A stretch of 26,385 nucleotides of DNA from a virus (lineage: Duplodnaviria > Heunggongvirae > Uroviricota > Caudoviricetes), in the IMG/VR virus record IMGVR_UViG_2909309443_000009; one strand, written 5' to 3'. Position 1 is the stretch's first letter. Each line of letters begins with the position of its first letter. The notes below the pieces were generated by a model. The model was not told the DNA's origin. It searched no databases and worked only from the letters and a program-made list of their open reading frames with translations. A program made the translations under genes and the position numbers. Shown here piece after piece: positions 754 through 24,109 of this stretch.

Positions 754-1328
754 CCAATTTAACTGAAACTAGGATGAAGTATATGCATATAAAGTTCACT
801 TTGCCAAACTTCAGTATAAAAAACCACATAAAAAATAGGGTGTGATAAAAAATACCGTAACAATAAAGCAAAGGATTATAAATTCCGTTACAGTTACAAA
901 TGATACTCAAGAAACAATTCCTTAGGAAAAACTTATTTACAGCCAATAAGTAAGACACTTATATGATATCAAGTTTTCATAAAACATAACTAGGCTAAAT
1001 AGCTTCGCCTAATACCGCTACACTTTTGCCAGCCCATGTTTGCCTCCGGGTATTGACCCCTTCTCTACGCAACTTCAGTTCCCACCACCAACTTTGCGGC
1101 AGCTTTGTAGGATCAATGTCTAAAAGAATAATGGTGACCGATAAGAAAACGACTGAATAACTGCAGATTTTCGCTCGAAACCTTCCTGTCAGATCCATAG
1201 CGAATCAAGTGCTGAATGTCACAGTATCGAACAGAAAACAGTGACGATCTAACCCTTCAAGAATATTCTACGATTGTTCTGTTTAGGAAAAGCAAGGCGG
1301 GAAGTCGGGAGATAAGTCATTGATAAAG

Positions 1329-1394
1329 TGGCGGAGAGAGGGGGATTTGAACCCCCGGTAGAGTTGCCCCTACTCCGGTTTTCGAGACCGGTCC
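1329..1394 (-). other. 3' fragment (about 66 nt) of a tRNA-Ser gene, anticodon CGA (serU-like); att-site remnant, not an intact tRNA
   Basis: Minus-strand sense reads GGACCGGTCTCGAAAACCGG (anticodon stem-loop, CGA) + long variable arm + T-arm GGGGGTTCAAATCCCCC + CTCTCCGCCA; the 5' acceptor/D-arm is absent and sequence diverges after 1394. Confidence 0.75.
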
Positions 1395-1475
1395 AATCAT
1401 AAAACGAAACATAAAATTAATTCACATTATGAGGAAAAAGTATCTTTTTTGTACTATGTAAATTCAAAGACTTAG

Positions 1476-2345
<870 letters not shown>

Positions 2346-2438
2346 GTCTTTAAGTGATAAGCATAAACCGCAGCACGATCTTGCATACGACGTGCTACGG
2401 TTTCATTTATCTCCGACTGGAAACTTCTTATACAAAGA

Positions 2439-2957
2439 CTATACGCCAACATCATAAATGATCGCCACCTTCTGGCGAGGAACTCCTGATGCAATTAATC
2501 GTCCGGCTTGTGCCCATTGTTCTGGTGTAAGTTTGGGACGACGTCCACCAATTCGTCCCTGTGCGCGAGCAGCTTCCAGTCCAGCTTTTGTTCGTTCAAC
2601 AATCAGTTCTCGTTCCATTTCAGCCAGGGCACCCATCACATGAAAGAAAAAACGCCCCATCGGCGTGCTGGTATCAATAGCATCCGTCAGGCTGCGAAAA
2701 TTAACGCCACGTTCGCGCAACTCCTCAACCAGAATGACCAGATGCCGCATACTACGCCCCAGCCGATCCAGCTTCCAGACAACCAGAGTGTCACCTGCCG
2801 ATAATGTCCTGAGCAGTTTTTTCAGTCCCAGCCTTTCGGACTTTGTACCGCTTATCTTGTCTTCAAAAATCAGCTCGCATCCTGCACAGTTCAGCGCATT
2901 ACGTTGTAGATCTGTGTTCTGGTCATTTGTTGACACACGTACATAGCCAATAAGCAT
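2439..2957 (-). CDS. pin: Pin/Gin/Hin-family serine DNA invertase, inverted second copy, C-terminally truncated (ends ...IIYDVGV)
   Basis: MLIGYVRVSTNDQ... resolvase/invertase catalytic domain; near-identical to 4835-5389 but lacks the last ~12 residues of the HTH; lies in a ~600-bp inverted repeat. Confidence 0.7.
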   Translation of the reverse strand: MLIGYVRVSTNDQNTDLQRNALNCAGCELIFEDKISGTKSERLGLKKLLRTLSAGDTLVVWKLDRLGRSMRHLVILVEELRERGVNFRSLTDAIDTSTPMGRFFFHVMGALAEMERELIVERTKAGLEAARAQGRIGGRRPKLTPEQWAQAGRLIASGVPRQKVAIIYDVGV

Positions 2958-2983
2958 GGTAGATCTCCCTGACAAAAGCAGGA

Positions 2984-3271
2984 ATGATGCCATTTGCTCG
3001 TTATTTCTGCATTTTCATAAATGTTGGTTTGGGAGAAGGTGCTCCAGCTATTGGCGTTCCGTTCTTCTGGCCGTCCGCTGCAATGCCAAATACTGTAATC
3101 GACAGCTGGTCCAGTATGGTGTTTTTGAAGTTCAACGGCGCGAAATTCTCTGCCACTGATTATCCTGTGCTGGCGAAAGTGTTTCCTTCGCTGGTATTAC
3201 CTGAAGCCCGCGGTGATTTCATTCGTATCTGGATGACGGGCGAGGTGCAGACGGTGGTCGCGAATTATTAA
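2984..3271 (+). CDS. Orphan tail-fibre C-terminal variable cassette (Sv-like) reading through the left crossover site
   Basis: ORF begins MMPFARYFCIFINVGLGEG across the crossover site, then a unique C-terminal cassette; no upstream constant tail-fibre region exists. Confidence 0.45.
   Translation: MMPFARYFCIFINVGLGEGAPAIGVPFFWPSAAMPNTVIDSWSSMVFLKFNGAKFSATDYPVLAKVFPSLVLPEARGDFIRIWMTGEVQTVVANY
3012..3037. repeat. pix/gix/hix-like 26-bp invertase crossover site (left)
   Basis: TTTTCATAAATGTTGGTTTGGGAGAA, reverse complement resembles hix/gix consensus TTnTCnAAACC..GGTTT..GAnAA; inverted partner at 4755-4780. Confidence 0.6.
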
Positions 3272-3479
3272 GCTGGCAGGCAGCTACAAACTTTTCTCAG
3301 TTTGCCGGGAATATAGGCGAAGGTGCGGGACACGCAATTAACTTTCATGATGGCATCGCCGGAAATCAGCCAGGATTTTCACGATTTAATTTCACCAGTA
3401 ACTCTGTGGGTGATGGTGTGAATTTTGTTGCTGTCAGACCGCGAAATATTGCATTTAACTTTCTGGTGAGGGCTAAATA

Positions 3480-4073
3480 ATGAAACCTGTTTTTGATGAA
3501 AATGGGCTGGCTACAGTGCCGGGCGATATGCGTTGTTTTTATTATGATGCTGAAACATCTGAGTATACGGGCTGGTCTGATGAATATATTAATACTGGCG
3601 TAAGTATGCCCGCCTGTTCCACTGGTATTGACCCTGGCGAAAACATTCCGGGAAGAGTGGCAGTATTTACAGGTAAGGGATGGCGCCATGAAGAAGACCA
3701 TCGCAATGAGACTGTTTACTTAATCGAAAATGGCGCAGCTGTTACAGTGGATTATATCGGTGCCATCAAAGACGGTTATGTCACGATTTCACCGTTAACG
3801 CCATACGATAAATGGGATGGTGAGAAATGGGTGACAGACACTGAGGCACAACACAGTGCCGCAGTAGACGCGGCAGAAGCACAGCGCCAGTCACTGATTG
3901 ATGCAGCAATGGCTTCCATTAGTCTGATTCAGCTGAAATTACAGGCCGGACGGAAACTGACTCAGGCAGAAACAACCCGACTTAACGCCGTGCTGGATTA
4001 CATTGACGCGGTGACGGCAACAGATACCAGCACCGCGCCGGATATCATCTGGCCTGAACTGCCGGAGGCGTAG
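3480..4073 (+). CDS. Tail fibre assembly protein (Tfa/U-like)
   Basis: 197-aa ORF with RBS GAGGG; Tfa-like N-terminus and C-terminal region; position directly after the tail-fibre cassette inside the invertible segment. Confidence 0.65.
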   Translation: MKPVFDENGLATVPGDMRCFYYDAETSEYTGWSDEYINTGVSMPACSTGIDPGENIPGRVAVFTGKGWRHEEDHRNETVYLIENGAAVTVDYIGAIKDGYVTISPLTPYDKWDGEKWVTDTEAQHSAAVDAAEAQRQSLIDAAMASISLIQLKLQAGRKLTQAETTRLNAVLDYIDAVTATDTSTAPDIIWPELPEA

Positions 4074-4259
4074 GCCATTCAATATCGGGTGCTGTTGACG
4101 TATCAACACGCATCAGCAGCACACGGTATTTCTTCCATTGGGTGAGAGTTGTAGCTTCTTCATCAGTTGCGATATCAGCATCAACAGCATCCTGACGCCA
4201 GGATATTTCACTGTCAGCTTTTTCCCGTAATTGGGATTTTTTAACTTCAGCAATAGCTA

Positions 4260-4472
4260 TTAATTCCTTTTGGTCGGCTGAGGAATATCTATCAGTGCTG
4301 GTTTTCCATTCAGTGTTCCAATCTGTTTTCCTGGTGGAATATCCATAAATAACTTCTTATGTTCTTCCTCACTGACTATTACACCATCATCAGGCCACAG
4401 ACCTGATGCCTCAAATTTTTCTTTCTCCGATATGGGGAAAAAGCCATTTGCTTTAGCGCTCCATACGTACAT
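4260..4472 (-). CDS. Tail fibre assembly protein, alternative copy, truncated (70 aa)
   Basis: Tfa-like N-terminus (MYVWSAKANGFFPI...) on the opposite strand, convergent with 3480-4073; premature stop suggests a decayed gene. Confidence 0.4.
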   Translation of the reverse strand: MYVWSAKANGFFPISEKEKFEASGLWPDDGVIVSEEEHKKLFMDIPPGKQIGTLNGKPALIDIPQPTKRN

Positions 4473-4487
4473 ATCAATACCCCACCG

Positions 4488-4808
4488 CTATAATGTCCAC
4501 ATTAAATCCCCGGGACCTGCCTGCCAGATGCTGGCCCCTGTTAATGATTTTGTTTGATGAACAACCGCCACATTTGCTGGCGATTGTGTTTCAGTTGTTA
4601 CAGTACCGATATCATTCCAGTTAATTGAGATGGAATAGTTCGTTGTTGTAAACGACCGGGGGAAAGTTATGTGTCTTACATTGGTGCCGACAGGAAATCC
4701 AAGATAAACACGCTGAATTATCATTCCTCCAGGTAACATAACCCAGTTAGCACCTTCTCCAAAACCAAGGTTTATGAAAATGCAGAAATAACGAGCAAAT
4801 GGCATCAT
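4488..4808 (-). CDS. Orphan alternative tail-fibre C-terminal cassette (Sv'-like) reading through the right crossover site
   Basis: Begins with the same MMPFARYFCIFIN junction peptide as 2984-3271, then a different C-terminal cassette. Confidence 0.45.
   Translation of the reverse strand: MMPFARYFCIFINLGFGEGANWVMLPGGMIIQRVYLGFPVGTNVRHITFPRSFTTTNYSISINWNDIGTVTTETQSPANVAVVHQTKSLTGASIWQAGPGDLMWTL
4755..4780. repeat. pix/gix/hix-like 26-bp invertase crossover site (right)
   Basis: TTCTCCAAAACCAAGGTTTATGAAAA; compare hixL TTCTTGAAAACCAAGGTTTTTGATAA; ~55 bp upstream of pin. Confidence 0.65.
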
Positions 4809-4834
4809 TCCTGCTTTTACCTGGGGGATCTACC

Positions 4835-5389
4835 ATGCTTATTGGCTATGTTCGCGTATCAACAAATGACCAGAACACCGATCTACAACGTAATGCGTTG
4901 AACTGTGTAGGATGTGAACTGATTTTTGAAGACAAGATAAGCGGTACGAAGTCCGAAAGACCGGGACTGAAAAAACTGCTCAGGACATTATCGGCAGGTG
5001 ACACTCTGGTGGTCTGGAAACTGGATCGGCTGGGGCGTAGTATGCGGCATCTGGTCATTCTGGTTGAGGAGTTGCGCGAACGTGGCGTTAATTTTCGCAG
5101 CCTGACGGATGCTATTGATACCAGCACACCGATGGGGCGTTTTTTCTTTCATGTGATGGGTGCCCTGGCTGAAATGGAACGAGAACTGATTGTTGAACGA
5201 ACAAAAGCTGGACTGGAAGCTGCTCGCGCACAGGGACGAATTGGGGGACGTCGTCCCAAACTTACACCAGAACAATGGGCGCAGGCCGGGCGATTAATTG
5301 CATCAGGCGTTCCTCGCCAGAAGGTGGCGATCATCTATGATGTTGGTATATCGACACTGTATAAGAAGTTTCCGGTCGGAGATAAATGA
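4835..5389 (+). CDS. pin: Pin/Gin/Hin-family serine DNA invertase (full length)
   Basis: 184 aa from MLIGYVRVSTNDQNTDLQRNAL...; complete C-terminal HTH (...VAIIYDVGISTLYKKFPVGDK); RBS GGGGGA upstream. Confidence 0.85.
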   Translation: MLIGYVRVSTNDQNTDLQRNALNCVGCELIFEDKISGTKSERPGLKKLLRTLSAGDTLVVWKLDRLGRSMRHLVILVEELRERGVNFRSLTDAIDTSTPMGRFFFHVMGALAEMERELIVERTKAGLEAARAQGRIGGRRPKLTPEQWAQAGRLIASGVPRQKVAIIYDVGISTLYKKFPVGDK

Positions 5390-5860
5390 AACCGTAGCAT
5401 GTCGTATGCAAGATTGTGCGCGGTTGGCTGGTGAACTTTCGATAGTGCGAGTATTGAATGATTTCCAGCCGTTATCGATTTTATGTATTTTTTGCATGAG
5501 AGGATTTCCATCACCTCCCACCGGCCATCTATGACTTTACGCCACTGTCCCTAGGACTACTATGTACTAGGAGCGGATGTTAAACTCAGACTCGTTTCAG
5601 CTACATTGCGTTTTGAATAATATTCCATCATAATAACTCTTTGAAAAATGTAACCTTTTCATTTATAACACTTATGACTTACTTATCTCATTGGGATATC
5701 GGAGGCGAATACTTAACTATGACAAGCCCGATTATTATGACGCTGGCGATATTATATAGATTGATATTAAAATGTAGGATTAGGTTCTTGCCAAGGTGTC
5801 AAGATTTACAGATAGGTTTAAAACCATATAAATATGTTTTACGGTGAGATGTAATAATTA

Positions 5861-5888
5861 TTGGAAAGCATAAACGCTTGGTAAAAAT
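5861..5888 (+). promoter_or_regulatory. Candidate sigma70 promoter for the large NTPase gene
   Basis: TTGGAA - 16 bp - TAAAAA about 25 bp upstream of the RBS GGGAGAAG; by-eye call only. Confidence 0.25.
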
Positions 5889-5911
5889 TTAATTGTTGGG
5901 AGAAGCTAATC

Positions 5912-8900
5912 ATGGAACCCATATCAATTACAGTGGCAACTTATGTAGCAACTAAACTTATTGATCAATTCATTTCTCAAGAAGGATATAGTTGGATTAA
6001 GAAAGCATTATTCCCCACAGAAAAATATGTGGATAGATTATATCAACTAATTGAAGAGACGGCAATTGAGTTTGAAGAAACATATCCAGTAGAAAGTGGA
6101 GCAATTCCATTTTATCATTCTAAACCATTGTTTGAGATGTTGAATGAGTACATCCTTTTTAAAGAGTTCCCTGACAAAGAGATGTTATTAGACAAGTTCA
6201 AAGAATATCCAAGCGTCACTCCCCCAACTCAACAACAACTCAGCCTTTTTTATGGGATGTTATCATTAAAAATCAATAATTGTTCGAAGTTAAAAAAGCT
6301 ACATATCGAAGAAACGTATAAAGAAAAAATATTCGATATTAATGAAGAGCTCATTCAAGTCAAACTTATTTTACGGTCTATAGATGAGAAACTAACTTTT
6401 CACTTAAGTGATGATTGGTTAAATGAAAAAAATAGTCAAGCAATAGCTGACTTGGGAGGTCGATACACACCCGAACTCAACGTAAAGCTAGAAATAGCAG
6501 AGATATTTGATGGCCTCGGTAGAACTAATGATTTTTCTAAAATATTTTATTCGCATATAGATAGCTTTCTGGTCGCTGGAAAGAAATTACATAGTTGCGA
6601 TGTAATTTCCTCAGAATTATTTGAAATAAACCAGTCCTTAAAAGAAATTTCTGATATATATCAGGAGATTAATTTTTCTAAATTAGATGAAATCCCTATA
6701 AATAAATTTAATAACTATGTTTCTAGCTGCCAGACAGCTATTGGCGGAGCGGTATCAATATTGTGGGAACTCCGAGAAAAGTCAGAGCAAGTAGGTGAAA
6801 CCAAGCATTACAGTGATAAGTATTCATCTACTCTGCGAATGCTTCGGGAATTTGACTATGCGTGCAATGAATTACGTATATTCATTAATTCAACAACAGT
6901 GAAGTTGGCTAACAACCCATTCTTACTTCTCGAAGGAAAAGCAGGAATTGGTAAGTCTCATTTACTGGCTGATGTGATTAAAAATCGAATTGCTTCTGGG
7001 TATCCTTCACTACTCATACTAGGGCAACAACTTACTTCAGATGAATCTCCATGGTCACAAATCTTCAAGAGATTACAGCTTAAAATCACTTCTCGTGAAT
7101 TCCTAGAAAAACTGAATTTATATGGCAAAAAAACAGGAAAAAGAGTCTTAGTTTTTATTGATGCTATTAATGAAGGTAATGGAAATAAATTCTGGAATGA
7201 CAATATTAACAGTTTTGTCGATGAAATCAGATGCTTTGAATGGCTTGGTCTGATAATGTCAGTCAGAACAACATATAGAAATGTAACAATTTCACATGAG
7301 AATGTTGTGCGAAATAATTTTGAAATTCATGAACATATTGGATTCCAGAACGTTGAGTTGGAAGCGGTTAGTCTATTTTATGATTATTACAATATTGAGA
7401 GGCCTTCATCTCCTAACCTTAATCCAGAGTTTAAAAATCCTCTATTTCTTAAGTTATTGTGTGAAGGCATTAAGAAAAATGGTTTAACCAAAGTGCCTGT
7501 TGGATTTAATGGGATTTCAAATATTTTTAACTTTTTAGTTGAAGGGGTAAATAAATCATTAGCATCGCCAAAAAAATATGCATTCGATCCCAGTTTTCCT
7601 CTTGTTAAAGATGCTCTCAATGAAATCATAAAATTCAAATTAGAGATTGGTCGTAATAGTATTTCACTTAAAGATGCTCACTCAGTGGTTCAATCTGTAG
7701 TTAATGATTATGTTGCTGATAAAACCTTCCTCAGCGCCTTGATTGACGAAGGATTATTGACTAAAGGCATAGTGAGAAATGATGATAATTCTACTGAGGA
7801 AGTAGTTTATGTGGCTTTTGAAAGGTTTGATGATCATTTAACTGTTAATTTTTTATTAAATGATGTTGAAAATATCGAAAGTGAATTTAAGCCTGATGGT
7901 CGTCTGAAAAAATATTTTCATGATGAATGTGATTTTTATATAAAATCGGGAATAGTAGAGGCGTTGTCTATTCAATTGCCAGAAAGGTATGAAAAAGAGC
8001 TTTATGAATTTCTGCCGGAGTTCAGCAATAATCTTAAATTACTAGAAGCCTTTATTGATAGCTTGATATGGCGCGATATTAAGGCTATTTATTTCGAAAA
8101 AATTAGACCTTTCATCAATGAACATGTTTTTAAATTTAAAGATAGTTTTGATCATTTCCTCGAGGCAGTGATCTCTATTTCAGGTTTAGTTGGCCATCCC
8201 TTTAATGCTAATTTCTTGCATGATTGGCTAAAAGATTATTCTTTGGCAAATCGAGATTCGTTTTGGACTACAGAACTTAAATATAAATATAGTGAAGACT
8301 CAGCATTTAGGCATCTAATCGATTGGGCATGGGCCAGAACAGATAAAAGCTTTGTTTCGGATGAGTCAATCGAGCTAGTTGCAACTAGTTTATGCTGGTT
8401 TTTAACTTCTAGTAACCGAGAACTTCGAGATTGCTCAACTAAGGCTTTAGTGAGTTTACTCGAGCCAAGAATTCCTGTATTGAGAAAAATAATTGATAAG
8501 TTTTATGGTGTAAATGATCCTTACGTTTGGGAAAGAATATTTGCAGTTGCATTAGGCTGTACATTGCGAACTGATAATATTAAAGAACTAAAATATTTAG
8601 CCGAAACTGTTTACCAAAAGGTATTTTGTTCTAAGTATGTGTATCCAAATATATTACTTAGAGATTATGCTAGAGAGATTATTGAATTTGCTAATCATCT
8701 TGGATTGGAACTTGAAAGCATTGAATTATCCAAGACTAGACCACCCTACAACAGCATTTGGCCTGACAAGATTCCTTCAAAAGAGGAACTAGAGTCCCTT
8801 TATGATAAAGAACCTTATCGGGAACTCTGGAGCTCTATTATGGAAGATGGTGACTTTTCACGATATACTATTGGAACAAATTATAATCATTCTGATTGGT

Positions 8901-10366
8901 CTGGTTGCAAGTTTAATGAAACCCCTGTTGACCGTAAGCAAGTTTTTAAAACTTTCAAATGTAAACTAACTGATCAACAAAAAGACTTGTATGATGCCAC
9001 AGATCCTTTCATTTATGATGATAAATGCGAAGGAATTAAATTTGGTCGTGTGGTCGGTAGAAAAGCACAGGAAGAAATAAAGGCGAGCAAGAAATTATTT
9101 AAGAATTCATTGTCATACGATCTGTTAAGTGAGTTTGAAAATGAAATAGAGCCATACCTGGATCATAATAATAATCTGCTGGAAACTGATAAACACTTTG
9201 ATCTTCGACTAGCTCAACAATTTATATTCAATCGTGTTATAGAGCTTGGTTGGGATCCGGAGAAGCATGGTAATTTTGACCAACAAATAGGAACTGGACG
9301 TGGACGTAGAGAGGCATTCCAAGAACGGATTGGTAAAAAATACCAATGGATTGCTTATTATGAATACATGGCAAGGCTAGCCGATAATTTTACTCGTTTT
9401 GAAGGTTATGGTGACGAACGAAAGGAAAATCCATACCAAGGGCCATGGGAGCCTTACGTAAGAGATATAGATCCCACTATCTTACTTAAAGAAACTGGAA
9501 CGAAAAAAATAAGCAATAAAGAAATGTGGTGGCTTAATGATGAAGTGTTTGATTGGACTTGCTCTAATGAAGACTGGGTTAAAAGTTCTACTACTATAAC
9601 TAATTCATATGCTTTTATTGAAGTTAAAGATGATAATGGTGATGAATGGATAGTATTAGAAAGTCATCCATCATGGAAAGAACCAAAAATTATTGGAAAC
9701 GATGATTGGGGGCACCCACGAAAAGAGGTTTGGTATCAGATCAGAAGTTATATCGTTAAAGTTGAAGAATTTGAAAATTTTAGATGTTGGGCAATAGCTC
9801 AAGACTTTATGGGCAGGTGGATGCCGGAATGTACTGATAGATACCAATTATTTAATAGGGAGTACTATTGGTCCGAAGCATTTAAGTCTTTTAAATCAGA
9901 TTATTATGGTGGATCTGACTGGACTTCGGTAACAGACCGGGAGTCTGGAGCTAAGATAGCTGATGTTAGTGTCACTTCGATTAATTATTTGTGGGAAGAG
10001 GAGTTCGACAAATCAAAAATAGAAACTTTGAATTTTTTGAAGCCTAGTAACTTAATCTTTGAAAAGATGGGATTAAAAAGTGGGGAAGTAGAGGGTAGCT
10101 TCAATGATGAAAATGGAACTATGGTTTGCTTTGCAGCTGAAGCTGTATATGCTTCAAAGCCGCATCTACTTGTTAAAAAAGAACCATTTTTAACAATGTT
10201 AAGGGACAATGGTTTTGAAATCGTTTGGACATTATTAGGTGAAAAGGGCGTTATAGGGGGCTCACTCATATCAAGTCATCATTATGGTCGACAGGAGTTT
10301 AGTGGAGCATTTTATTATGAAGACAGTCAGCTAACAGGAAGTCATAAAACTAGCTTTACGAGATAA
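5912..10366 (+). CDS. Large (1484 aa) STAND/NACHT-like P-loop NTPase with uncharacterised N- and C-terminal modules; candidate antiphage defence protein
   Basis: Uninterrupted ORF with strong RBS; Walker A GKAGIGKS (nt 6935-6958), Walker B VLVFIDAINE (~7145-7177), sensor-1-like LIMSVRT; AT-rich; sits between pin and an att core. Confidence 0.8.
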   Translation: MEPISITVATYVATKLIDQFISQEGYSWIKKALFPTEKYVDRLYQLIEETAIEFEETYPVESGAIPFYHSKPLFEMLNEYILFKEFPDKEMLLDKFKEYPSVTPPTQQQLSLFYGMLSLKINNCSKLKKLHIEETYKEKIFDINEELIQVKLILRSIDEKLTFHLSDDWLNEKNSQAIADLGGRYTPELNVKLEIAEIFDGLGRTNDFSKIFYSHIDSFLVAGKKLHSCDVISSELFEINQSLKEISDIYQEINFSKLDEIPINKFNNYVSSCQTAIGGAVSILWELREKSEQVGETKHYSDKYSSTLRMLREFDYACNELRIFINSTTVKLANNPFLLLEGKAGIGKSHLLADVIKNRIASGYPSLLILGQQLTSDESPWSQIFKRLQLKITSREFLEKLNLYGKKTGKRVLVFIDAINEGNGNKFWNDNINSFVDEIRCFEWLGLIMSVRTTYRNVTISHENVVRNNFEIHEHIGFQNVELEAVSLFYDYYNIERPSSPNLNPEFKNPLFLKLLCEGIKKNGLTKVPVGFNGISNIFNFLVEGVNKSLASPKKYAFDPSFPLVKDALNEIIKFKLEIGRNSISLKDAHSVVQSVVNDYVADKTFLSALIDEGLLTKGIVRNDDNSTEEVVYVAFERFDDHLTVNFLLNDVENIESEFKPDGRLKKYFHDECDFYIKSGIVEALSIQLPERYEKELYEFLPEFSNNLKLLEAFIDSLIWRDIKAIYFEKIRPFINEHVFKFKDSFDHFLEAVISISGLVGHPFNANFLHDWLKDYSLANRDSFWTTELKYKYSEDSAFRHLIDWAWARTDKSFVSDESIELVATSLCWFLTSSNRELRDCSTKALVSLLEPRIPVLRKIIDKFYGVNDPYVWERIFAVALGCTLRTDNIKELKYLAETVYQKVFCSKYVYPNILLRDYAREIIEFANHLGLELESIELSKTRPPYNSIWPDKIPSKEELESLYDKEPYRELWSSIMEDGDFSRYTIGTNYNHSDWSGCKFNETPVDRKQVFKTFKCKLTDQQKDLYDATDPFIYDDKCEGIKFGRVVGRKAQEEIKASKKLFKNSLSYDLLSEFENEIEPYLDHNNNLLETDKHFDLRLAQQFIFNRVIELGWDPEKHGNFDQQIGTGRGRREAFQERIGKKYQWIAYYEYMARLADNFTRFEGYGDERKENPYQGPWEPYVRDIDPTILLKETGTKKISNKEMWWLNDEVFDWTCSNEDWVKSSTTITNSYAFIEVKDDNGDEWIVLESHPSWKEPKIIGNDDWGHPRKEVWYQIRSYIVKVEEFENFRCWAIAQDFMGRWMPECTDRYQLFNREYYWSEAFKSFKSDYYGGSDWTSVTDRESGAKIADVSVTSINYLWEEEFDKSKIETLNFLKPSNLIFEKMGLKSGEVEGSFNDENGTMVCFAAEAVYASKPHLLVKKEPFLTMLRDNGFEIVWTLLGEKGVIGGSLISSHHYGRQEFSGAFYYEDSQLTGSHKTSFTR

Positions 10367-10749
10367 AAATGAATCTCAGAGCTGAATATATAAGTAGTAT
10401 TAGAAACCGGGTTATACTTAAGAAATCAATCTTAAGTGTGGCAGTCGAATGGTAGCTAATATGCTAGCGGCGCTAATGCCTGTTTGTTGCTCATAACAGG
10501 CATTCACTTTAGTTATGGCAGAAAAGTATACATGCTGGGTTGGGAAAGTGTGAAAGAAAGGAAGATTGCTGCGCCGTTTGTCGTCACGTTTATCTTCATT
10601 GGCTATGCAAGTCGTAATAAAAGGTGGGACAAAACTGAGACACATAAAGCCTCGCAATGGCTTGCAAGGCTTTACATGTTTTGATGTGGTGGGACGTGTG
10701 AGCGCAGTGTTGATGGGGTAATGCTTTGAATTAGAAGCGGATTCTTATA

Positions 10750-10795
10750 ATTCGTAATGCGAAGGTCGTAGGTTCGACTCCTATTATCGGCACCA
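10750..10795 (+). other. 3' 46-nt fragment of tRNA-Thr (thrW-like, anticodon CGU): att core, not an intact tRNA
   Basis: ATTCGTAATGCGAAGGTCGTAGGTTCGACTCCTATTATCGGCACCA; upstream sequence is not tRNA-like. Confidence 0.75.
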
Positions 10796-10809
10796 TTTAA
10801 ATCAATAAG

Positions 10810-11587
10810 TTACCTCACATTTAAGTAAACTACGTTCTCCTCTTGTGCCGTATTTGTGCCATTGCGACTTATAATCGCATCGATTTTGCTCGCGTGCTCG
10901 GTGAGATGCCCGGCTGAAAGGTGGGCGTATCTTTGAACCATTTCGAGAGTTTCCCATCCTCCCATCTCTTTAAGTGCAAGAAGAGAGACACCGGACTGAA
11001 CCAGCCAGCTTGCCCAGGTATGCCTCAGATCATGGAAGCGGAAGTTGCTAATGCCTGCCCGCTTTAACGCTCCCTTCCATGCCTTGTTGCTGTCGGTTCT
11101 CATTTTCCTTACCGCTGCTGTTTTTGTTCCGTCGCTTCGGTAGGCAGGTTTGGTGTGGACAAATACCCATCTCTTATGGAGCCCCTGCTGTTTTCTTAAT
11201 ATCTGGCATGCGGTTTCGTTAAGAGGAACTCCAATCGCATTGCCAGCTTTTGTTTCATCAGGGTGCATCCATGCCATTTTCTTATCCAGATCGACCTGTG
11301 ACCACTCAAGGTCTGTAACGTTGGAACGGCGAAGGCCTGTCGTGATTGCAAACATGACCACAGGGAAGAAGTGAGGAGCAATTTCTGCAAACAGGCGCTT
11401 CGATTCCTCCTCTGTAAGCCATCTGATTCGTCCATTCTTAACGCGTGGTGTTGATATTTTGGGCGCCCTGTCAAGCCATCCCCATTCAACAGCCATATTG
11501 AGAATAGCGCGAAGTATTGCCAGATGCCGCGTCTTCGTTCCTTTGCTTGCCAGCTTTGGTTTATACTCCGGCACTGGCTTGCCAAGC
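10810..11587 (-). pseudogene. int: Tyrosine integrase, C-terminal ~255 codons, separated from its upstream part by IS66 insertion
   Basis: Catalytic motifs [13 protein letters not shown] and RYAHL present; aligns to residues ~130-387 of the intact integrase at 22883-24046; reading frame continues through the target duplication into the IS. Confidence 0.75.
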
Positions 11588-11617: not shown

Positions 11618-13189
11618 TTACTGAGAGCTCAGATCAACTTTCCAGGGCAACAGATCGCGTACCCGGTTTGCCGGCCAGTCCTGGATATGTTCAATGACGT
11701 AACGCAGCCACTTTTCTGACTCCACATTGTTCAGACGGCATGTGCCGATCAGCGAGTACAACACCGCCGCATGTTCACCACCGCTGTCGGAACCCGCGAA
11801 CATCCAGTTTTTCCGGCCTACGGCCACTCCCCGTAAGGCGTTCTCTGCGATGTTGTTGTCGATTTCCACCCAGCCATTACTGCAGTACACGTTCAGTGCA
11901 TCCCACTGTTTCAGCAGGTATGCGAACGCTTTTGCCGTATCTGAGTGACGCGACAGTGTTTTCATCTGTTGCTGTATCCAGTCATACAGTGACTGCATCA
12001 GTGGCGCGGCTCTGGCTTTTCTTGCCGCCAGACGCTGTTCTGCTGAACAGCCCCGGACCTCTGCCTCGATGGCATACAGTTCACCGATACGCTGCAGGGC
12101 TTCCGTGGTGATGTAGGTGGGCGCTCTTGCATGCACATCGTGGATTTTTCTCCGGACATGAGCCATACACGCGGCTTCCGTTATTCTGCCGGATTCGTAT
12201 AACGCCCGGTAACCACCGTAAGCATCGGCCTGAAGCACACCGCTGTAACCGGCCAGGTGATTTTGTGGATGGATACCTTTCCGGTCCGGACTGTACGCGA
12301 ACCAGACCGCCGGGGGCATCTGTGAACCGGCGTTACGGTCATCACGGACGTAGACCCACAGCCGGGCTGTCCGGGTTTTACCGCTGCCCGGCTCCTGGAC
12401 CGGGACGGGGATATCATCAGCATGGACTTTACCGGGCATCAGCACATACTGGCGCAGGACGTCATACAGCGGCTCCAGCAGTTCAGCAACAGCACCTGTC
12501 CAGCGCCCCAGTGTGGCACGGCTCAGCTCCACGCCCTGACGACGGTATATTTCTGACTGGCGGTATAACGGCAGATGGTCTGCATATTTCCCGGTGACAA
12601 CATGGGCCAGAAGCCCCGCTCCGGCATAACTGCGTGCAATGGGTTTTGAAGGTACTGGTGCCTGCACGATATGGTCGCACCGGCAACAGGCCTGTTTCGG
12701 ACGTTGTGTTTCGATAACCTTAAAGGCGCTGCTGATAAGCTCCAGTTGCTCTGACACATCACATCCCAGAGAACTGAGTTCACCACCACAGGCAGGACAG
12801 CATTCCTCTTCCGGCCGGATAACCCGGGTTTCACGGGGAAGTGAGGCCGGTAACGGTTTACGGGCTGAAGACTGGCGCAGGGGGGATGGCAGTACCGGGT
12901 CATATTGCTCACCCAGCGTTTCTGCCATTTCTTCCTGAAGTGCGCTGATTCGCTCCTGTGCTTCCTGTATCTGCCGTTCGGTTTTTGCGCGAAGTTTTTC
13001 TGAGCTTTTACCGAACTGCATACGTTGCAGTTTCGCAACCAGCGCCTTCAGCCGGTTGATTTCGGAAGCATAAGCCGCCACCCGCTGTGAGAGCAGGCGG
13101 TTGTATTCAGCCATCTGGCGTATGGTGTCCTGTTGCGTCTGCAACAGTGCCCGCAGGCGGGCGTTCTCATGAGCAAGTGAGGTGTCCAT
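11618..13189 (-). CDS. tnpC: IS66-family transposase TnpC
   Basis: 523-aa ORF with N-terminal coiled-coil/leucine-zipper-like region and Cys-rich segment typical of IS66 TnpC. Confidence 0.8.
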
Positions 13190-22351: not shown

Positions 22352-22656
22352 TGACCACTTTTACCGACAAAGAACTGATTAAAGAAATTAAAGAGCGTAT
22401 CAGCAGCCTTGACGTGCGAGACGATATTGAGCGCCGTGCTTATGAAATCGCACTCCTATCTCTGGAAGTAGAACCAGATGAACGCGAAGCTTATGAATTA
22501 TTCATGGAAAAGCGTTTCGGTGACTTAGTAGATCGTCGGAGAGCAAAAAACGGCGATAACGAATACATGGAATGGGATATGACTCTCGGTTGGATCGTCT
22601 GGCAGCAACGAGCTGGTATCCATTTTTCAACAATGTCACAGCAAGAGGTGAAATAA
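22351..22656 (+). CDS. Hypothetical prophage protein (YfdT-like)
   Basis: 101-aa ORF; stop overlaps the xis start (TAATG). Confidence 0.45.
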   Translation: MTTFTDKELIKEIKERISSLDVRDDIERRAYEIALLSLEVEPDEREAYELFMEKRFGDLVDRRRAKNGDNEYMEWDMTLGWIVWQQRAGIHFSTMSQQEVK

Positions 22657-23006
22657 TGGAGCCATACAGCCTCACACTCGATGAGGCCTGTCATTTTCTC
22701 AAGATATCCAGACCGACTGCCATTAACTGGATACGCACAGGGCGTCTTCAGGCAACACGCAAAGATCCCACTAAGAATAAATCTCCTTACCTCACAACAC
22801 GACAAGCCTGCATTGCGGCTCTTCAGTCTCCGCTGCATACTGTCCAGGTGAGCGCGGGTGATGGCATAACAGAGGAAAGAAAATGTCACTCTTCCGCAGA
22901 GGTGAAATATGGTACGCCAGTTTCACATTGCCGAACGGTAAAAGATTTAAACAGTCTCTTGGAACAAAGGACAAAAGGCAGGCGACAGAACTCCATGACA
23001 AGCTAA
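22656..23006 (+). CDS. xis: Excisionase (AlpA/Xis-type HTH); 3' extent uncertain
   Basis: [36 protein letters not shown] typical of excisionases; RBS GAGGTG; in-frame ORF runs to 23006, overlapping the int start at 22883. Confidence 0.5.
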
Positions 23007-24046
23007 AGGCTGAAGCATGGCGGGTCAGCAAACTTGGTGAAATACCTGATATAACGTTCGAGGAAGCGTGTGTCAGGTGGCTTGAAGAGAAAGCACATAA
23101 AAAATCACTGGACGATGACAAAAGCCGGATCGGATTCTGGCTTCAACATTTCGCAGGAATGCAACTAAGAGACATTACTGAATCAAAAATTTATTCAGCA
23201 ATGCAGAAAATGACGAACCGGCGTCATGAGGAAAACTGGAAACTCAGGGCAGAAGCATGCAGAAAAAAAGGGAAACCTGTTCCAGAATACACGCCAAAAC
23301 CAGCGTCCGTTGCAACGAAGGCTACGCATCTTTCATTTATAAAGGCCCTACTAAGAGCCGCAGAGCGTGAATGGAAAATGCTGGATAAGGCACCAATTAT
23401 TAAAGTGCCTCAACCAAAGAATAAACGGATCCGCTGGCTGGAGCCCCATGAAGCACAAAGGCTGATTGATGAATGTCCGGAGCCATTAAAGTCTGTTGTT
23501 GAATTTGCACTGGCAACAGGCTTAAGACGCTCGAACATCATCAACCTTGAATGGCAACAAATAGATATGCAGCGCCGGGTGGCATGGATAAACCCGGAAG
23601 AGAGTAAATCAAACCGCGCAATCGGCGTTGCGCTGAATGATACTGCATGTCGCGTTTTGAAAAAACAAATCGGGAATCATCACCGTTGGGTATTTGTGTA
23701 CAAGGAAAGCTGTACCAAACCAGACGGAACGAAAGCGCCAACAGTAAGGAAGATGCGGTATGACGCAAACACAGCCTGGAAAGCAGCGCTGAGACGGGCT
23801 GGTATTGATGATTTCAGATTTCACGACTTGAGACACACCTGGGCAAGTTGGCTGGTTCAAGCCGGAGTCCCGTTGTCAGTGTTACAGGAAATGGGAGGCT
23901 GGGAGTCTATCGAAATGGTTCGTCGATATGCTCACCTTGCACCTAATCACCTTACCGAACACGCACGGCAAATAGACTCGATCCTGAACCCATCGGTCCC
24001 AAATTCGTCCCAGTCAAAAAATAAGGAAGGTACTAATGATGTGTAA
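22883..24046 (+). CDS. int: Lambdoid tyrosine integrase (intact)
   Basis: 387 aa; RBS AGGAAAG; catalytic R...HxxR...Y motifs ([24 protein letters not shown]); ends 14 bp before the att core. Confidence 0.9.
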
Positions 24047-24060
24047 CTTATTGATTTAAA

Positions 24061-24109
24061 TGGTGCCGATAATAGGAGTCGAACCTACGACCTTCGCATT
24101 ACGAATGCG
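24061..24109 (-). other. 3' 49-nt fragment of tRNA-Thr (thrW-like) in inverted orientation: second att core
   Basis: TGGTGCCGATAATAGGAGTCGAACCTACGACCTTCGCATTACGAATGCG; the 14-bp spacer to the integrase stop (CTTATTGATTTAAA) is identical to the spacer at 10796-10809. Confidence 0.75.

Follow-up and report, generated by a model that had tools for sequence, protein, structure and literature searches.

The locus described here is closest to the DNA inversion systems of the Din (Hin/Gin/Cin/Pin) family, which include the G segment of Mu with Gin, the C segment of P1 with Cin, the H segment of Salmonella with Hin and the P segment of the e14 prophage of Escherichia coli K-12 with PinE (Plasterk and van de Putte 1985). 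The Mu, P1 and Salmonella systems share with our locus the enzyme family, a 26-bp site with a 2-bp core and a presumed invertasome involving Fis and an enhancer (PMC3798978). They also have a clear output, i.e., a switch of the tail fibre or of the flagellin promoter, whereas our locus has no output gene. In K-12, e14 carries a single pin gene, and one of its two crossover sites, pixL, lies in the constant part of the fibre gene stfP. The P segment is inverted by PinE in culture (PMC12529663, PMC4272514), and PinQ acts in trans on e14 (PMC12529663). Written with the central dinucleotide set apart, the published e14 sites are TTCTCCCAAACC AA GGTTTTCGAGAG for pixL and TTCTCCCAAACC AA CGTTTATGAAAA for pixR (PMC3241671 Table 3).

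Here, we analysed a stretch of 26,385 nucleotides of viral DNA (Caudoviricetes; IMG/VR record IMGVR_UViG_2909309443_000009), in the following called the window. An initial annotation, made from the sequence alone, had proposed that a 1.7-kb segment at 3012-4780 is an invertible cassette with two alternative tail-fibre tips and their tfa genes. Our analysis suggests, with a probability of roughly 80%, that this locus is a vestigial but still recombination-competent P segment of the e14 type, which is placed between two pin genes and is devoid of its target fibre gene. While inversion of a tail-fibre P segment by Pin at pix sites is already known, the two invertase genes depart from every described relative. 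In a limited library, a literature search turned up no report of two invertase genes bracketing an invertible segment, which is a weak sign of novelty.

Crossover sites and the inverted pin repeat

The two 26-bp sites of the Pin type, one being the inverted partner of the other, lie exactly where the initial annotation had placed them at the ends of the segment. The left site (3012-3037, minus strand; window letters TTTTCATAAATGTTGGTTTGGGAGAA) has its core at 3024-3025 and agrees with the published pixR in 25 of 26 positions, and the right site (4755-4780, plus strand; window letters TTCTCCAAAACCAAGGTTTATGAAAA) has its core at 4767-4768 and agrees in 24 of 26. Read as inner half, core and outer half, the left site is TTCTCCCAAACC AA CATTTATGAAAA on the minus strand and the right site is TTCTCCAAAACC AA GGTTTATGAAAA. 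Both published e14 pix sites were recovered exactly from K-12 MG1655 (locus L004, 4779-4804 and 6606-6631). When the window was searched with the published pixR 26-mer at up to three mismatches, our two sites were the sole matches (one and two mismatches; 0 expected by chance). The palindromic 26-nt Din consensus at up to two mismatches also returned these two sites only, again with one and two mismatches (0.07 expected). An alignment to the family consensus had been proposed as a check on the sites, and both match pixR and the Din consensus within two mismatches. The initial annotation had further named an incompatible core dinucleotide as an observation that would speak against inversion; read from the inner to the outer half, the core is AA in both sites, and the sites are in inverted orientation. 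The outer halves of both sites are of the pixR type, and no pixL is present at the locus.

The description of a segment bounded merely by 26-bp sites proved incomplete. A repeat search and alignment revealed that the crossover sites form the inner ends of a 671-nt inverted repeat, whose left arm (2373-3043) comprises a truncated pin gene (pin'), its leader and the left site, and whose right arm spans 4749-5419. There is thus one pin gene on each side of the segment, both pointing outward, and the second, oppositely oriented one had gone unreported. The arms are 95% complementary, with 36 substitutions between them and a perfectly identical run of about 200 nt.

The right copy, pin (4835-5389, plus strand), encodes an intact serine DNA invertase of 184 aa with matches to the Pfam families Resolvase (1.2e-51) and HTH_7 (5e-13). 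It aligns to the sequences of the Gin structures (PDB 3UJ3/4M6F) over residues 1-181 with an E-value of about 1e-92, and the catalytic Ser9 is present. The left copy, pin' (2439-2957, minus strand), encodes a serine invertase of 172 aa that matches Resolvase (2.4e-50) and covers only 34 of the 45 profile positions of HTH_7; the 172-aa product is labelled pinE by PGAP in relatives. As judged from an alignment with K-12 PinE and the right copy, a premature TAG in pin' costs the last 12 residues (STLYKKFPVGDK). Going by what we know of the helix-turn-helix domains of Hin and Gin, these residues presumably form the recognition helix. Because this stretch is missing, pin' is probably inactive.

In comparison to the e14 P segment, our locus has the same recombinase (the right Pin is 95% identical to K-12 PinE by alignment), the same pin-proximal site apart from one to two substitutions and the same AA core. 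It also shares the arrangement of convergent cassettes of a tip and a tfa gene, with a start of the stfE type beside pin. Where K-12 e14 has one pin gene and a pixL in the constant part of stfP, the window has a second, inverted pixR and a truncated pin instead.

Segment orientation among natural genomes

Eighteen complete genomes of an enterotoxigenic E. coli (ETEC) lineage carry the same junction of pin and the downstream gene avs2 at an identity of at least 99.9%. The orientation of the window, in which a GIY-YIG gene, pin', the P segment, pin and avs2 follow each other, was found in six complete genomes, while the segment is flipped between identical flanks in 11. The alignments of the flanks, at 99.97-99.99%, continue right up to the site.

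A closer inspection of three flipped genomes, i.e., FORC_031, B2C and E54, located the exchange within the sites. Their site on the GIY-YIG side reads TTCTCCAAAACC AA CATTTATGAAAA and the one on the Avs2 side TTCTCCCAAACC AA GGTTTATGAAAA. The variant of the inner half (C/A at site position 7) has thus travelled with the segment, whereas the variant of the outer half (CA/GG at positions 15-16) and all 36 substitutions of the repeat arms have remained with the flanks. Because the half-site variants swap reciprocally while the 36 arm differences stay put, the exchange was reciprocal and took place within site positions 8-14 (AAACC AA), a stretch of 7 bp that includes the 2-bp core. The comparison of these genomes shows that the segment has been inverted at these sites in nature, and the half-site swap fits site-specific recombination.

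Flipping might alternatively be ascribed to RecA-dependent homologous recombination between the inverted pin repeats, as arms of 671 nt with 95% identity and an identical run of about 200 nt are a classical substrate for homologous inversion. However, such crossovers should mostly fall within the long identical run, carrying along the arm single-nucleotide polymorphisms (SNPs) located there. In the three inverted genomes, each checked independently, none of the 36 arm substitutions changed sides, and the only variant that moved lies 5 nt inside the core. We therefore consider homologous recombination a very unlikely cause of the flips.

Two clades could be distinguished, one by an ISEc62 insertion together with a G at window position 8090 and the other by a T at this position, which is a SNP in avs2. 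The first clade contains 2014EL-1346-6 and TW10598 versus the flipped B2C, and the second the window, E8 and E1433 versus the flipped FORC_031 and E54. Since each of the two clades holds both orientations, at least two independent inversions are required. SNPs inside the insertion sequence IS66 (window 11618-13189) were left out of this argument, as copies of an insertion sequence can exchange sequence. Strain E1620, at first a candidate for a further inverted genome, was dropped and left out of both the mapping and the clade argument; its segment is a gap-ridden, partly palindromic consensus, and its truncated pin' carries an IS100 insertion. Measuring 1579 bp, the segment of E1620 (L012, 10040-14200) has tip 1 sequence at both ends, and it may represent either a genuine rearrangement or a chimera in which the consensus merges the two orientations. 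In a separate set of prophages, namely the intact GIY-YIG-type ones with a single pin in other E. coli, both orientations of the segment occur across genomes, consistent with active switching among phages that are functional.

Our locus thus has the recombinase, the paired inverted sites, the core and the reciprocal exchange of the Din inversion systems. By analogy with Hin and Gin, the intact Pin (4835-5389) would bind both sites as dimers, and the Pin-bound sites would pair with an enhancer bound by Fis. Cleavage at the central AA/TT dinucleotide, rotation of one half of the tetramer by 180 degrees and religation would then flip the segment. The outcome of such a flip would be limited to exchanging the pin flank that each tip open reading frame (ORF) abuts and to changing two residues of each junction peptide.

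Several points weigh against this reading and have to be set beside the evidence above. At position 16, where the Din consensus has a conserved G as the first letter of its GTTT block, the left site carries an A, yet the site works despite it. The clade argument draws on few markers, i.e., one insertion sequence and one to three SNPs, and the case for activity in this particular strain is built on differences between assemblies. The assignment of this Pin as the catalyst, with Fis and an enhancer taking part, follows from analogy, and another Pin-family recombinase encoded elsewhere (PinQ- or PinR-like) could act in trans instead. Moreover, a scan of the 5' regions of both pin genes with a degenerate Fis motif returned several weak, unpaired candidates and no convincing pair.

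Contents of the segment and the missing fibre gene

The invertible segment measures 1.74 kb from core to core (3024/3025 to 4767/4768) and consists of two convergent cassettes, each made up of a tip and a Tfa chaperone gene. The proposed content of two alternative tips and two tfa genes was confirmed by two matches to Caudo_TAP and one to Gp53-like_C, together with the similarity of tip 1 to StfE. The tip 1 ORF (2984-3480, plus strand; tip portion 3038-3480) opens with a start of the StfE type, MMPFARYFCIFIN, antisense to the pin' leader and continues through the left site into a tip that is 44% identical to K-12 StfE. In the window, the absence of one G at about 3230 shifts the frame of this ORF, leaving an ORF at 2984-3271, while it runs uninterrupted over 165 aa in the relative L001; PGAP names the product 'phage tail protein, missing N-terminus'. 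The adjoining tfa1 (3480-4073, plus strand) encodes a tail-fibre assembly chaperone of 197 aa (Pfam Caudo_TAP, 1.4e-27) with 64% identity to K-12 TfaE by BLASTP.

On the other strand, tfa2 (4045-4472, minus strand) encodes a tail-fibre assembly chaperone of 142 aa in relatives (Pfam Caudo_TAP, 6.6e-33 for the L001 copy). In the window it is split, with a 70-aa ORF at 4260-4472, by a missing T in a run of five T at about 4263-4267. The tip 2 ORF (4474-4808, minus strand; tip portion 4474-4754; window ORF 4488-4808) has the same StfE-type start, here antisense to the leader of the right pin, and reads through the right site into a Gp53-like_C tip. Strain Z1323HEC0067 has a complete fibre of 194 aa whose C-terminal 99 aa share 98% identity with this tip. 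In the window, the C-terminus of the tip is altered by a missing C in a run of five C at about 4507, a deletion that the window shares with E8. Both tips are thus alleles other than those of K-12.

The second tfa had been described as truncated to 70 aa and decaying. The length is correct for the window; the decay is not borne out, as a single T is missing from the T5 run and the gene is intact with 142 aa in seven relatives (E8, 2014EL-1346-6, FORC_031, E1433, E54, Z1323HEC0067 and WS0115A). Compared with three close relatives, the segment of the window differs only by three single-base homopolymer deletions, namely at about 3230 in a GGG run (the frameshift in tip 1), at about 4267 in the T5 run (yielding the 70-aa tfa ORF) and at about 4507 in the C5 run (the changed end of tip 2). 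Over 24 kb aligned with 2014EL-1346-6, three of four indels fall inside the 1.7-kb segment; outside it, the window has a homopolymer deletion at about 13702. In TW10598, a member of the other clade, the segment accounts for 8 of 11 gapped positions, and the T5 and C5 runs are again affected; the segment likewise holds all gapped positions of B2C (3/3) and E8 (1/1). There are zero substitutions among the eight segments compared. Judging from this pattern, the deletions are probably errors of consensus or polishing that concentrate in the segment and not signs of biological decay. Reads of mixed orientation could be their cause, as could multi-copy tfa and stf sequences that hamper polishing.

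This poor consensus quality, seen in the homopolymer deletions of several assemblies and in the gap-ridden segment of E1620, could invite the view that the second pin or the differences in orientation were themselves made by assemblers confused by an invertible repeat. The double-pin layout, however, is common to 18 complete genomes from different laboratories, and its two arms can be told apart by 36 substitutions and by their unique flanks. Nor would a precise reciprocal swap of half-sites be expected from an arbitrary flip in an assembly graph, and we regard an artefact as extremely unlikely.

Both frames cross their site with similar junction peptides, FINVGLGEG in the tip 1 ORF and FINLGFGEG in the tip 2 ORF, which had been taken as a sign of alternative C-termini being spliced onto a fibre. 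Our comparison does not support this interpretation. The complete fibres of K-12 (StfP), Z1323HEC0067 and WS0115A start with MHRIDTKTAQ... and cross pixL as ...TALENLGLGEG. In contrast, both tip ORFs of the window begin with MMPFARYFCIFIN, followed by (V/L)G(L/F)GEG at the site, and thereby resemble the K-12 stfE pseudogene with its start MPFACYFFIFINVGLGEG. Upstream of its site, each frame runs antisense through a pin leader and not through the TALEN constant part, and the junction peptides are alike because both sites are pin-proximal and of the pixR type. The 13-residue start of each tip ORF is the same in either orientation, with V/L and L/F at the junction as the only exchanges, in agreement with protein accessions from PGAP that differ between orientations.

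The constant 5' part of a tail-fibre gene (MHRIDTKTAQ...TALEN) is absent from the locus, where both outer flanks are pin leader. Tail or baseplate genes are likewise not present at the locus, where the neighbours are the GIY-YIG gene, an AraC-like gene, avs2, a partial integrase and IS66. The intact relatives with a Mu-like tail (Z1323HEC0067, WS0115A and pCE-O153H30-A) have the same tips, tfa genes and pin-distal cargo at 96-97% identity. They differ from our locus in having a single pin each, a pixL (TTCTCCCAAACC AA GGTTTTCGAGAG) inside a complete fibre gene and full sets of tail and head genes, with ymfQ and the baseplate, tape-measure, sheath and head genes adjoining the fibre.

Two convergent cassettes of tip and tfa between Pin-type sites, with frames open across both sites, would be compatible with a functional switch of host range, with inversion joining alternative tips to one constant N-terminus of the tail fibre of the prophage. 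However, the frames that enter the sites are pin leader antisense (MMPFARYFCIFIN) where real fibres have ...TALENLGLGEG, the outer half is of the pixR type at both sites without any pixL, and no baseplate or tail genes are adjacent. The locus therefore lacks traits that define such a switch, and we hold this reading to be highly improbable. Because the constant fibre part and the tail genes are absent and a pin lies on each side, flipping cannot switch a tail fibre here.

Origin of the double-pin layout and possible retained function

The two flanks of the segment point to different parents. Window positions 1312-4773 are colinear, at 97.2%, with the pin end of the intact GIY-YIG-type prophage of Z1323HEC0067 (L002), a prophage with only one pin gene whose pixL lies within a complete fibre gene. 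Toward the other side, the pin ends of Avs2-type elements are colinear at about 96%, i.e., window 4757-10639 with pCE-O153H30-A (L006) and 3792-10864 with WS0115A (L007), whose Avs2-type prophage adjoins paoD. From these alignments, the locus is a fusion in which the pin-proximal end of a GIY-YIG-type prophage of the e14 family meets that of a different, Avs2-type one. The pattern of parental SNPs is L002-like up to 4632, L007-like at 4689, 4691 and 4761, L002-like again at 4769 and L007-like from 4774. The switch between parents is thus confined to the stretch from 4632 to 4773, which takes in the right site, and the joint is ambiguous as the parents are proxies. The fusion may have arisen by Pin-mediated exchange between a pixL and a pixR or by homologous recombination in the shared region of tfa2 and tip 2; the latter route would require the two segments to be in opposite states.

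The genes downstream of the two pin copies are a LEM-3-like GIY-YIG gene next to pin' (1572-2345, plus strand; Pfam PF22945, 2.1e-14) and, next to the intact pin, the gene for Avs2 (AVAST type 2; 5912-10366, plus strand; PGAP annotation), where K-12 has mcrA. The slot just downstream of pin in e14-family prophages holds interchangeable genes of the defence type, with mcrA in K-12 (L004 7347-8180), GIY-YIG and Avs2 as examples, and about 45 nt past the pin stop codon are shared across these slots before the sequences diverge.

The entry pCE-O153H30-A (NZ_CP172337.1), a 44.8-kb circle deposited as a plasmid, is a complete e14-family phage genome. It comprises int, avs2, pin, the P segment, the fibre, Mu-like baseplate and tail, an HK97-type head and lambdoid early genes, and it also has iss and emrE. 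In the window, homology to the Avs2-type phage stops at 10639, a putative att core, and 10624-10864 is an inverted copy (94%) of the flank beside a yagP' fragment just left of the window. A CPS-53-like remnant carries at its far end an integrase (22883-24046; region 22644-24086) that shares 98% identity with the one of the Avs2-type phage. The region as a whole is a layered mosaic of prophage remnants, including the IS66 mentioned above.

An alternative reading gives the tips a function of their own. In K-12, the adsorption block by StfE2, driven by PinQ and PinE (Kirigo et al., NAR 2025), involves an ORF that likewise starts beside pin and reads through pixR into a tip, and StfE2, built in the same way as our tip ORFs, is reported to block adsorption of T2 (PMC12529663). 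By this model, the two short StfE-type tip proteins of the window would be expressed from their pin-proximal starts and act in phage exclusion. In its favour, both ORFs begin in the manner of K-12 stfE and are uninterrupted in most relatives, and the locus has been retained in 18 genomes with hardly any substitutions. Defence genes (GIY-YIG and Avs2) adjoin it, and with a pin on both sides each tip retains its start whichever way the segment lies. On the other hand, the lineage is nearly clonal, so that this conservation says little. A scan for promoters and terminators upstream of pin and of the tip ORFs found nothing, with fewer promoter-like sites than in shuffled sequence. The tip sequences differ from those of the K-12 block: BLASTP detected no similarity of either window tip to the StfP tip of K-12, which makes StfE2, and the lack of such similarity for tip 2 counts against a shared function. 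Furthermore, the window tips are always joined to their start, so inversion would not gate the product as in K-12. A domesticated function of this kind is unlikely in our view.

A related proposal joins origin and function, in that the layout would have arisen from a Pin-catalysed pixL x pixR exchange between two e14-family prophages, giving a deletion or fusion and not an inversion, and would have been kept, by analogy with StfE2, for exclusion by the StfE-type tips in a defence island. We consider it unlikely, and if true, it would mean that DNA invertases remodel prophage arrays.

The reading we prefer, a vestigial P segment still competent for recombination, has several implications. For the study of such loci, a frameshift that a long-read assembly shows inside an invertible segment probably reflects an error of the consensus and should not be mistaken for gene decay, and half-site polymorphisms in public genomes suffice to map an exchange within 7 bp. 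The slot downstream of pin in e14-family phages exemplifies swappable defence genes, i.e., mcrA, a GIY-YIG nuclease and Avs2. Taken together, our analysis suggests that an invertible segment that has lost its target gene and come to lie between two invertase genes can nonetheless keep flipping in a natural ETEC lineage.

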